Of a DNA stretch of 32,000 nucleotides, positions 26,795 to 28,508 are shown in pieces. Each line of letters opens with the position of its first letter. The first letter of the stretch is position 1. The stretch lies in NCBI GenBank assembly GCA_003144275.1, contig NJBF01000001.1, positions 150,001-182,000 of the forward strand, written 5' to 3'. Below the pieces are notes generated by a model. The model made no database searches. It was not told where the DNA came from and was given only the letters and a program-made list of their open reading frames with translations. Source of the stretch: Candidatus Heimdallarchaeota archaeon B3_Heim (GTDB lineage Archaea; Asgardarchaeota; Heimdallarchaeia; Hodarchaeales; Hodarchaeaceae). The translations under genes were made by a program, and so were the position numbers.

Positions 26795-26960
26795 ATTTTC
26801 TTTTCAACATGACTAAATTTGTCAGACAACTTTGGAAATAAAGTTCTGGACAGGATGAGTCACATATCCGCTATCCGGCAGGCCCGACACCATAAAAGGT
26901 GTAGGAACCATAGGGACTACTTTAAACTTACATATATACCGTTGAAGAATATTCCGAGCC
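26795..26960 (-). ncRNA. Predicted TnpB omega/reRNA overlapping the tnpB 3' end, with a flank-derived guide
   Basis: Expected position for TnpB systems. Nested hairpin GGAUA/UGUCC and GGAU/AUCC at about 26845-26875. Boundaries are inferred. Confidence 0.45.
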
Positions 26961-28220
26961 GCATTGTAATCTGCATTCAGGAAAAACCCACACGCTCGAC
27001 ATACGAAGCACCCGCGAGATTTACGATTGCGTTTATCTACACACCCACATTGACTACATTGTTGGGAGGTATAAGCTTCGTCCACACGGACTACAGTCAT
27101 CCCAACAAGTTTAGCTTTATATTCGAGCATTTTAACGAATTGAAGAAACGGAAGGTGAACAAAAGACTGGTTAGTTCGCTTTCCTAAGTTACAGTGTTGT
27201 TTCCACAGAGGATTATAGCCAATGATTAGTGTATCAATATTTTGCTGCACACAGTAGGAGATAATCTGCCGAGAGGTTTGATGAAAGACATCACGGAGCC
27301 TATTCGTCCGAACACGCGAGAGGCGTTGAATCCGACGGGTAGTAACCTGTTGCTTGTGAATGGTAGCTAACGACCGATAATGGGCAAGTTGTTTATTATA
27401 CCACTGATTAATTGCCTTAACTACCCCGCCTTTGACGAGTAACCCGTCTGACGAAGTTACGAGGTTGTTAAGGCTGAGATCTAGCCCCATCGCACGAGGA
27501 GGGGAATCAGAGGTGGGAAAGTGTTGTACTTGCACTTCATACAGAATTTCTACCACAAATCGATCATAAAACGGAACTAAACGGGCACCGACACAGGTCT
27601 CGGCAGTAAGAGGCAGTGTTCCCAGCAGGAAGGTGGGAAACCCGCGAAGCATGAGATTTCGAGCAAACAGAATCTGGTTCTCACGGATTCGGACCCGAGG
27701 GCGGGGAAAGTTCAACATATGGAGCCCATTTTTGGGTTTATACCCTGGGATTCGGGGGCGACTCTGAAACTTGGTTGGATCTTTCTTCCACGCTTTTAAC
27801 CCATTAAAAAAGCTCCGCCAGGTTTGTTCTACCTGCCGTAGAACTTGTTGGGGAAGGTAACTATCGGAGAGGGTTTTTAAGGCTAAATACACGGGTTCGG
27901 CCTTAAGCTGATGATACAGGGTGGTATATTGCACCCATTTACCTGTCTGAAAGAATGTTTGTCGGACCACATATGTTGCCCGATTGTACAGATTCTTTGC
28001 ACACGCACACAAATCGGTGAAAATTGGCCGTGGTTTCATTTGAATTCGGATGGCCAACTGTGGATGAGGGTGTTTTTTGGTACGCATTCCCACCTCATTG
28101 TGAGTCCTCGTGTTTATAACTTTACAAGAGAGAGAGAGAGATTCATGAAAGTGGCGAATGTAGTGAAAATGAGGCTGATTTTGGTCTGAAGAGAACTTTT
28201 ATATTTCGTTGTCAGACAAA
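26812..28220 (-). mobile_element. Non-autonomous TnpB-only insertion element (~1.41 kb)
   Basis: Visibly higher GC than the flanks. TTGTCAGACAA at both ends (26819-29, 28209-19). TTCAACATG duplicated immediately outside (26803-11, 28221-29). No tnpA. Confidence 0.78.
26822..28087 (-). CDS. tnpB: TnpB RNA-guided nuclease (IS200/IS605/IS607 type), rearranged RuvC-II
   Basis: AKNLYNRA N-terminus, RuvC-I MGLDL, LIIGYNPLWKQ (E replaced by G), VDEAYTS, zinc finger CSQC...CRAC, RuvC-III NADYNAARNI. ATG at 28087 follows GAGGTG. Confidence 0.92.
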   Translation of the reverse strand: MRTKKHPHPQLAIRIQMKPRPIFTDLCACAKNLYNRATYVVRQTFFQTGKWVQYTTLYHQLKAEPVYLALKTLSDSYLPQQVLRQVEQTWRSFFNGLKAWKKDPTKFQSRPRIPGYKPKNGLHMLNFPRPRVRIRENQILFARNLMLRGFPTFLLGTLPLTAETCVGARLVPFYDRFVVEILYEVQVQHFPTSDSPPRAMGLDLSLNNLVTSSDGLLVKGGVVKAINQWYNKQLAHYRSLATIHKQQVTTRRIQRLSRVRTNRLRDVFHQTSRQIISYCVQQNIDTLIIGYNPLWKQHCNLGKRTNQSFVHLPFLQFVKMLEYKAKLVGMTVVRVDEAYTSQQCSQCGCVDKRNRKSRGCFVCRACGFFLNADYNAARNILQRYICKFKVVPMVPTPFMVSGLPDSGYVTHPVQNFISKVV

Positions 28221-28508
28221 TTCAACATGTAATCCCGAGGAAAAGTATCTCTGAAAGGAAAAAATACATACATTTTCACCTTTAAGCGATTTAAAGGCAA
28301 GAATAGATGTATAAAGCTGGTAACCTACATTCTATTATTAATAAATTGATATAAAAACTCCTTAATAGAATAAGGCAACATTAATTAATACAGGATTATA
28401 TAAAACGACTATAAGGAGTGTATCTTCACTAATGACTCAAATCTTAGGATAGCAGGCACTCCGACTTTTATCTGGGTTTTAATCAACACTCTGGTTGGTG
28501 AATTGAAA

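Follow-up and report, generated by a model that had tools for sequence, protein, structure and literature searches.

A tnpB-only insertion sequence with CATG-ended inverted repeats in a Hodarchaeal genome, probably mobilised in trans without a target-site duplication

The 32,000-nt stretch analysed here (hereafter the window; C57:150001-182000 of the metagenome-assembled genome (MAG) G000) carries on its minus strand, at 26808-28229, an insertion sequence (IS) whose only gene is tnpB. It measures 1,422 bp including the CATG at both ends, boundaries that were set by alignment with five other full copies and ∼23 deleted copies. The host MAG, of Hodarchaeota/Heimdallarchaeota type, comprises 3.95 Mb in 103 contigs, with 36 % GC and a completeness of 94 %. 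We found that the terminal inverted repeats (TIRs) of this element are genuine, that it is non-autonomous and belongs to a family that has recently multiplied as full and tnpB-less copies, and that the insertion at 26808-28229 postdates the split of this lineage from its closest sequenced relative. Prior to insertion the site held one CATG-like tetranucleotide, and no further duplication was made. A sequence-only reading of the same DNA had proposed a 9-bp target-site duplication (TSD) around the element; judged by the copies and alleles compared below, this repeat consists instead of the shared CATG and a chance match of five bases. Taken together, we read the element as a tnpB-only, TIR-bounded IS that targets CATG, is mobilised in trans and generates no TSD, and put the probability of this reading at roughly 0.85. 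The features referred to throughout are as follows.

26787-26807, minus strand: flank predicted from OMEGA architecture to encode the guide, UUGAAAAGAAAAUGAUUGUAC, immediately 3′ of the CATG of the right end (RE, the tnpB 3′ side); different in every copy
26803-26807, plus strand: TTCAA, flanking DNA that lies outside the element and is not duplicated; TTCAT stands here in the empty allele, and the flanks of other copies are unrelated
26808-26829, minus strand: RE inverted repeat CATGACTAAATTTGTCAGACAA, matching the family consensus throughout (0 mismatches; the genome has about 35 RE ends); it doubles as the 3′ end of the predicted omegaRNA scaffold
26808-26925, minus strand: predicted omegaRNA scaffold, comprising no less than the final ∼118 nt and overlapping the 3′ end of tnpB, with a hairpin at 26830-26843; kept in tnpB-less copies
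26822-28093, minus strand: tnpB open reading frame (ORF), 423 aa, GTG start; from Pfam, PDB matches and the family alignment
28094-28208, minus strand: 5′ untranslated or putative promoter region, read from the sequence; the equivalent region is kept in tnpB-less copies
28209-28229, minus strand: inverted repeat of the left end (LE, the tnpB 5′ side), 21 nt, TTGTCAGACAAATTCAACATG on the plus strand

Inverted ends, copies and the insertion site

The palindrome TTGTCAGACAA is present at 26819-26829 and again at 28209-28219, and the inverted ends common to all copies have the consensus CATGAYYAAATTTGTCNGACAA. Alignment of all ends gave one inward-facing consensus of 22 bp for both sides, CATG-AYYAAAT-TTGTCNGACAA, which is built from the CATG, a 7-nt arm and the 11-bp palindrome TTGTCNGACAA, and which is seen at about 70 ends with a constant distance to the CATG. 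The motif TTGTCWGACAA occurs at 44 sites in the genome, against about 3 expected from base composition, and nearly all of these are element ends. In four other Hodarchaeota MAGs, copies with TnpBs of no more than 69-73 % identity have ends of identical architecture, from which it follows that the ends are under selection and that the TIRs are real. The sequence-only reading had correctly placed all of its motifs, including the tnpB stop codon inside one palindrome and a TATA-like string inside the other end, and had rightly regarded inverted ends as atypical of both IS200/IS605 and IS607 elements. The former have asymmetric ends with subterminal hairpins and no TIRs, whereas here the inverted repeats are 22 bp long and equidistant, with a palindrome stem of 5 bp; the latter lack TIRs and have GG termini and a GG target, whereas here the TIRs end in CATG and the target is CATG. 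The 6-nt asymmetry it described between the ends arose from counting arm plus CATG as a TSD; the true asymmetry is a 1-nt deletion, the LE arm of this copy being one G shorter than that of its sister copies (CATGGTTGAAT...).

A search of its own genome with the element gave 47 matches. These include six full or near-full copies (DNA identity 70-77 %, tblastn identity 68-81 %), 23 internally deleted, tnpB-less copies of 358-367 bp in which the promoter end and the final ∼130-150 nt of the tnpB end are kept with a short internal piece between them, one copy of 146 bp, and three 33-bp ‘solo’ units in which both ends share one palindrome. The solo units (C8:64499-64531, C35:1462-1494 and C50:11147-11179) are near-perfect palindromes of the form CATG-N7-TTGTCNGACAA-N7-CATG, and are probably terminal-only forms that arose by a deletion from one 11-bp palindrome to the other. 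Both G000 (about 30 copies) and the closely related MAG_8 (G021; 67 ends) are rich in the family. Most other genomes of the genus have few copies or none; a closed genome of 4.9 Mb (G009) and three further genomes gave 0-1 TIR matches each, too few for tracing a mobilising partner in them. TnpB relatives at 69-96 % identity all come from MAGs labelled Heimdallarchaeota or Hodarchaeota. Elsewhere in G000, at C88:109277-109958, a 360-bp tnpB-less copy interrupts another tnpB copy, itself degraded, in the part that encodes the zinc finger, and reading-frame arithmetic suggests that this target, too, held one CATG-like tetranucleotide.

As letters, the 9-bp direct repeat exists: TTCAACATG is found at 26803-26811 and again at 28221-28229. 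Four of its nine bases are, however, the CATG that forms the conserved terminus of essentially every copy, and the TTCAA of the right-hand repeat is the left-end arm of the element rather than flank. A sister copy in MAG_8 (L032, G021:C179), which is 97.5 % identical and inserted at an unrelated locus, carries the same TTCAAC arm; it ends ...ATTCAACCATG, or with its flank ...GACAAATTCAACCATG/CCACC (the slash marks the junction). The distant copies C8:203, L042 and L043 likewise begin CATGGTTGA(A/G)T, and all four bear CATGGTTGA(A/G)TTTGTC(C/T)GACAA at the left end. Among 30 paired elements the flanks outside the CATG share 0-3 nt, as chance gives, and none of the 30 shows a duplication. For a coincidence of 5 nt between flank and arm the probability per comparison is about 0.0014, which gives about 0.08 expected over the 60 comparisons in the genome; it was seen once in 60, apart from the nested case C82:62618, where the terminal CATG of an older end remnant was the insertion site. 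The other copies thus have no 9-bp duplications of their own, and in them part of the 9-mer belongs to the element, the outcome that the sequence-only reading had itself named as refuting its proposal.

The vacant form of the site was recovered in MAG_8, where contig C152 matches the window up to 26809 and resumes at 28221. This empty allele reads TTTTCATCAAGTAATCC (in a longer stretch, ...CATTTTCTTTTCATCAAGTAATCCCGAGG...), such that the target before insertion held TTCAT followed by the CATG-like CAAG, once. Filling the site adds 1,418 bp, one tetranucleotide less than the 1,422 bp of the element, and contigs from two independent metagenome studies (runs X1 and X3) skip exactly 1,418 bp here. 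The reverse case was found at 5506/5507 of the window (...AAAATATG/AGG...), which is empty where MAG_8 is filled by the tnpB element L034 (L034:3873-5286), a copy flanked by TAT(T)...CATG; the surrounding empty-site context at 5490-5520 is ...TTTCTAAAATATG/AGGTAGG.... Insertion beside a short specific target without duplication is thus what was found, with no TSD in the 30 pairs and a CATG-like target in both empty alleles. The orthologous locus in G003 was considered as a further empty site and set aside, as its intergenic DNA is too diverged and only the lengths fit (263 vs 257 bp).

Within the terminal tetranucleotide it is the outermost base that varies, and it does so independently at the two ends: TATG...CATG is found in C21 and C44:7889, CATG...CATA in C69 and C85, and L034 has TAT(T)...CATG at a TATG target. 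A 4-bp duplication is therefore excluded. The junctions fit a strand exchange, or a stagger of 0-2 bp, inside the CATG, in which the outer bases would come from the target and the inner ones from the element; a 2-bp AT duplication would be indistinguishable from an exchange at AT. They fit less well with a Y1 enzyme, for which the right-end tetranucleotide would be element-encoded. At the C69 and C85 sites, which hold right-end CATA copies, MAG_8 has an extra 33 bp and 1.2 kb, respectively, beside the element position, so that the empty alleles are blurred; these differences may reflect element-adjacent deletions. The loci compared (C69:9356-10779 with G021:C7, and C85:15982-16343 with G021:C83) are ones at which the related genome offers no clean empty site.

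TnpB, its predicted omegaRNA and the guide

The protein contains the domains of a TnpB/OMEGA nuclease, with Pfam matches to OrfB_IS605 (PF01385, 3e-19) and to the Cas12f1-like TNB domain (PF07282, 2.3e-23), and its best solved relatives in the PDB are Cas12f and TnpB. The RuvC-I aspartate lies in GLDLS, the RuvC-III aspartate in NADYNAA, and a CxxC...CxxC zinc finger is present. Throughout the clade the RuvC-II glutamate is replaced by glycine (IIGYN); in the family alignment the Asgard proteins and their bacterial relatives have a conserved glutamate in the following strand, (D/N/E)E(A/S)YTS, which in the studied copy lies in VDEAYTSQ. On this alignment the protein is a member of the clade with a rearranged RuvC-II site, as described by Altae-Tran et al. 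(PMC10691335). The two closest bacterial homologues (L047 and L048; 33 % identity) sit directly behind IS607-type TnpA genes, whose products have an N-terminal extension and a resolvase domain at residues 76-208, and because of this the TnpB lineage looks serine-recombinase-associated, although the ends of the element are not IS607-like. A stretch of ∼35 nt within tnpB (27425-27462; CCTTTGACGAGTAACCCGTCTGACGAAGTTACGAG, coding for ...SDGLLVKGG) is the sole internal piece kept in all 360-bp derivatives and has a high contig depth in metagenomes, making it a candidate RNA part or shared deletion endpoint. G000 also contains a second, unrelated tnpB-only family of ∼1.66 kb with about seven copies (including C38:57938-59598, C61:21532-23188, C82:50635-52296 and C96:23641-25294); its ends are different and not inverted, and its TnpB, with an HTH_OrfB_IS605 N-terminus, shares 22-24 % identity with that of the studied element.

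The tnpB TGA stop falls in the centre of the window-left palindrome (26819-26829). Over the last ∼118 nt before the RE CATG, RNAalifold analysis of 29 copies found stems in which compensatory changes are numerous, a pattern that an omegaRNA would be expected to show; a search against Rfam gave no family match, with one sub-threshold chance match only. A TATA-like CTTTTATAT is located at 28196-28204, just inside the window-right palindrome (on the minus strand AAATATAAAAG, the reverse complement of 28196-28206), and a second such string, GTTATAAA, precedes the tnpB start codon by about 30 nt; 28094-28208 is a putative promoter region. The guide should start UUGAAAAGAAAAUG..., the CATG being part of the conserved end; the guide predicted earlier (CAUGUUGAA...) is accordingly displaced by 4 nt, and in place of the GATTA target-adjacent motif (TAM) proposed with it, the conserved motif beside the vacant target is CATG. 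On the mechanism that we propose, tnpB would be transcribed from the left-end promoter and the 3′ end of its transcript processed into the omegaRNA, with the flank past the RE CATG as guide; TnpB-omegaRNA would then cut vacant sites consisting of CATG plus this flank, and the element would be copied back by recombination.

Candidate mobilising enzymes

As the element encodes TnpB only, with no transposase, it must be moved in trans. Mobilisation in trans, one half of what the sequence-only reading had claimed, is therefore supported; its other half, a DDE-type enzyme, is not thereby established, for with the TSD its main argument falls, and no DDE transposase with matching ends was found. Several classes of enzyme were searched for. 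The Y1 (HUH) TnpA (PF01797) is absent from G000 and G021, and in G012 a single fragment was detected. Asgard Cas1-TnpB transposons are known (PMC10691335), and Cas1 was not found in G000. Neither was an IS607 TnpA found there by tblastn with five IS607-type TnpAs, and the only serine recombinase in the genome is a protein of 183 aa with the classic resolvase domain order, located beside a reverse transcriptase. In our own reading of this locus (C2:5629-7439, equivalent to L031:98-1908), near a contig end, a reverse transcriptase-like ORF of 416 aa stands tail-to-tail with the resolvase, and the two may form a retron- or defence-type pair. DDE enzymes are represented in G000 by three repeated IS families with clear domains (PF01609, PF13546) and a fourth with a sub-threshold match only; the TIRs of all four are unrelated to those of the element, and a transposase sharing the TTGTCWGACAA ends, which the sequence-only reading had suggested looking for, did not emerge from these families or from the TIR-bounded units examined.

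MAG_8 and other relatives do carry IS607 elements, with unrelated ends; those of the relatives (L134-L137) were considered and rejected because the ends of the studied family are absent from them, and the IS607-type element L047 has no comparable inverted ends. Between TIR pairs no other cargo was found in G000, G021, G003 or G012. One candidate, C8:61897-64531, proved to be a left-end remnant beside a host gene encoding a large unannotated ORF, and unpaired TIRs in G021, G003 and G012 were contig ends or remnants by host genes. A metagenome scan for the TIR gave 44 loci, made up of family members, solo ends, chance matches in bacterial genes and one array (L148), with no transposase among them, and neither the TIR pattern nor the 40-bp junction pattern had a match in viral_contigs. 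The array is carried by metagenome contig VAPL010027350.1 (5.9 kb, very AT-rich), which has six 40-bp sites, TTGTCGGACAA-N7-CATG-N7-TTGTCGGACA, at ∼1347-1390, 2152-2195, 2727-2768, 4172-4211, 4829-4868 and 5400-5439. With a spacing of 571-1444 bp, these resemble abutted right and left ends with one shared CATG, and what they bound looks like an array of cassettes with the same ends. Small ORFs of no known family lie between the sites, and upstream is a 360-aa protein with a ribbon-helix-helix (RHH)-like N-terminus; apart from that N-terminus the L148 proteins had no Pfam or PHROG function and no usable Atlas match.

In our proposal the element would move to new CATG sites in trans, by an enzyme encoded outside it. 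The likeliest mover would be a dimeric recombinase or transposase that binds double-stranded DNA, reads the palindromes and exchanges strands inside the CATG. The outermost C and G would then be target-derived and the inner bases element-derived, and the RE/LE circle junction would be expected to read ...ATTTAGTCATGATCAAAT....

Several kinds of enzyme could fill this role. A serine recombinase, IS607-like or other, is a tentative first choice; it would exchange a circular junction, TTGTCNGACAA-N7-C/AT/G-N7-TTGTCNGACAA, with a target CATG through an AT core, leaving no duplication. The position of the closest bacterial TnpBs behind IS607-type TnpA points this way, as do the absence of a TSD, the single shared tetranucleotide, the independent variation of the outer bases, which exchange at a central dinucleotide predicts, and the abutted ends with one CATG between them, found at C82:62600-62639 and six times in L148. 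IS607 exchange itself uses an identical 2-bp core (PMC6188088). IS607 elements, however, lack TIRs, end in GG and target GG (PMC6188088), G000 contains no IS607-type TnpA, and the IS607 elements of its relatives have unrelated ends.

A DDE transposase supplied in trans, with CATG as its insertion site and either an AT duplication of 2 bp or a blunt insertion between CA and TG, seems to us somewhat more doubtful. Such an enzyme would explain perfect TIRs at a fixed distance, and the termini would then read TG...CA, which are common among DDE elements. Moreover, the losses beside the element relative to G021 at C69 (33 bp) and C85 (1.2 kb) resemble adjacent deletions, and DDE-linked TnpBs are known (PMC10691335). 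Set against this are the different TIRs of the DDE IS families in G000, and the lack of any TIR-bounded transposase unit in G000, G021, G003, G012 or the 44 metagenome loci.

More speculatively, the CATG-N7-TTGTCNGACAA ends could be sites of an undescribed recombinase that is neither Y1, IS607 TnpA nor a known DDE enzyme, and that would move both Hodarchaeal TnpB/omegaRNA units and unrelated small-gene cassettes, head-to-tail and sharing CATGs as in L148; we regard this as unlikely, if worth stating. Less likely still is an ordinary IS605-type element of the IS1341 group, moved as single-stranded DNA by a Y1 HUH TnpA encoded elsewhere, with CATG targeting and the palindromes serving as subterminal hairpins. 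Haloarchaeal IS1341-type elements and PATEs share with this family near-terminal palindromes, a 4-5-nt target without duplication, core deletion and mobility without an intact TnpA (PMC3119063), and the 33-bp solo ends would be the same phenomenon as terminal-only PATEs. In disagreement with this, the searches for Y1 TnpA came back with the single fragment in G012 and nothing in G000 or G021, the stem would be just 4-5 bp with a loop of 1-3 nt, the arms outside the palindrome are equidistant inverted repeats that a strand-specific enzyme does not need, and the last right-end base varies (CATA in four copies), as if target-derived. Finally, the model of the sequence-only reading, a DDE transposase acting in trans with a true 9-bp TSD TTCAACATG and an element proper ending at 26812 and 28220, is very improbable: the two 9-mers are identical, the empty allele holds one 9-mer-like string (TTCATCAAG, 7/9), TIRs are typical of DDE elements and DDE-linked TnpBs with inverted ends are known (PMC10691335), but the TTCAAC(C)ATG arm recurs in the sister copy elsewhere and in distant copies, all ends carry CATG, 0 of the 29 other paired copies are duplicated, and the element would miss 10-11 terminal nt found in every other left end.

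The reading of the element as a trans-mobilised, TIR-bounded IS that targets CATG without a TSD has points that weigh against it. The empty allele differs from the 9-mer at just two of nine positions, and the case against the TSD is therefore carried by the sister and distant copies with the TTCAAC arm and not by the empty allele alone. The copy studied may be decaying, as its tnpB starts with GTG, a Gly-to-Ser change affects the RuvC-I DLG motif and the left arm has the 1-nt deletion. With CATG as the TAM, the filled right-end junction (...AGTCATG plus the guide match) would itself be a target, and some means of avoiding self-targeting would have to exist. Furthermore, a missing mobilising gene is weak evidence in a 94 %-complete MAG of 103 contigs, as multi-copy IS often go unassembled.

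Relation to known TnpB elements

The nearest parallel in overall organization is provided by the IS1341-type IS200/IS605 elements and PATEs of haloarchaea (Dyall-Smith et al., 2011; PMC3119063), with which the family has in common a solo tnpB and a 3′ guide RNA, identical palindromes near both ends, a short target (4 nt here, 4-5 nt in haloarchaea) that is not duplicated, many gene-less derivatives, repeat-mediated loss of the core that leaves terminal-only forms, and mobility without a recognizable or intact transposase in the genome. The 33-bp solo units resemble the 52-bp terminal-only PATEs of Haloquadratum. Unlike these elements, the studied family has full 22-bp equidistant inverted repeats, a palindrome too short for a stable hairpin, and the same tetranucleotide, CATG, ending both sides. 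With the IS607 family (IS607, IS1535 and ISC1926; PMC6188088) it shares the lack of a target duplication, an exchange consistent with a common 2-bp core and, in its nearest bacterial TnpB relatives, an IS607-type context; IS607 elements differ in the absence of TIRs, in GG termini and targets, and in having several direct subterminal motifs. The DDE-linked and trans-mobilised solo TnpBs of Altae-Tran et al. (2023; PMC10691335) are alike in their symmetrical inverted ends, in the position of the TnpB 3′ end near one end and in the trans-mobilisation of solo copies. In contrast to the DDE-linked TnpBs, no DDE partner with these ends was found for the studied family and no multi-bp TSD is present, and its TnpB clusters, in what is a putative branch assignment, with the serine-recombinase-linked, RuvC-II-rearranged TnpBs and not with a shown DDE branch.

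For the copy studied here the main result is a negative one, in that there is no true TSD of the kind that had hinted at a DDE association like that of Fanzors. Both Cas12 and the eukaryotic Fanzors descend from TnpB, and the nearest known relatives of eukaryotes include the Hodarchaeal Asgard archaea. The combination of symmetric ends, a palindromic CATG target and no recognizable transposase with, nevertheless, recent activity suggests that the mobilisation system of this family is either undescribed or an unusual variant of a known one.

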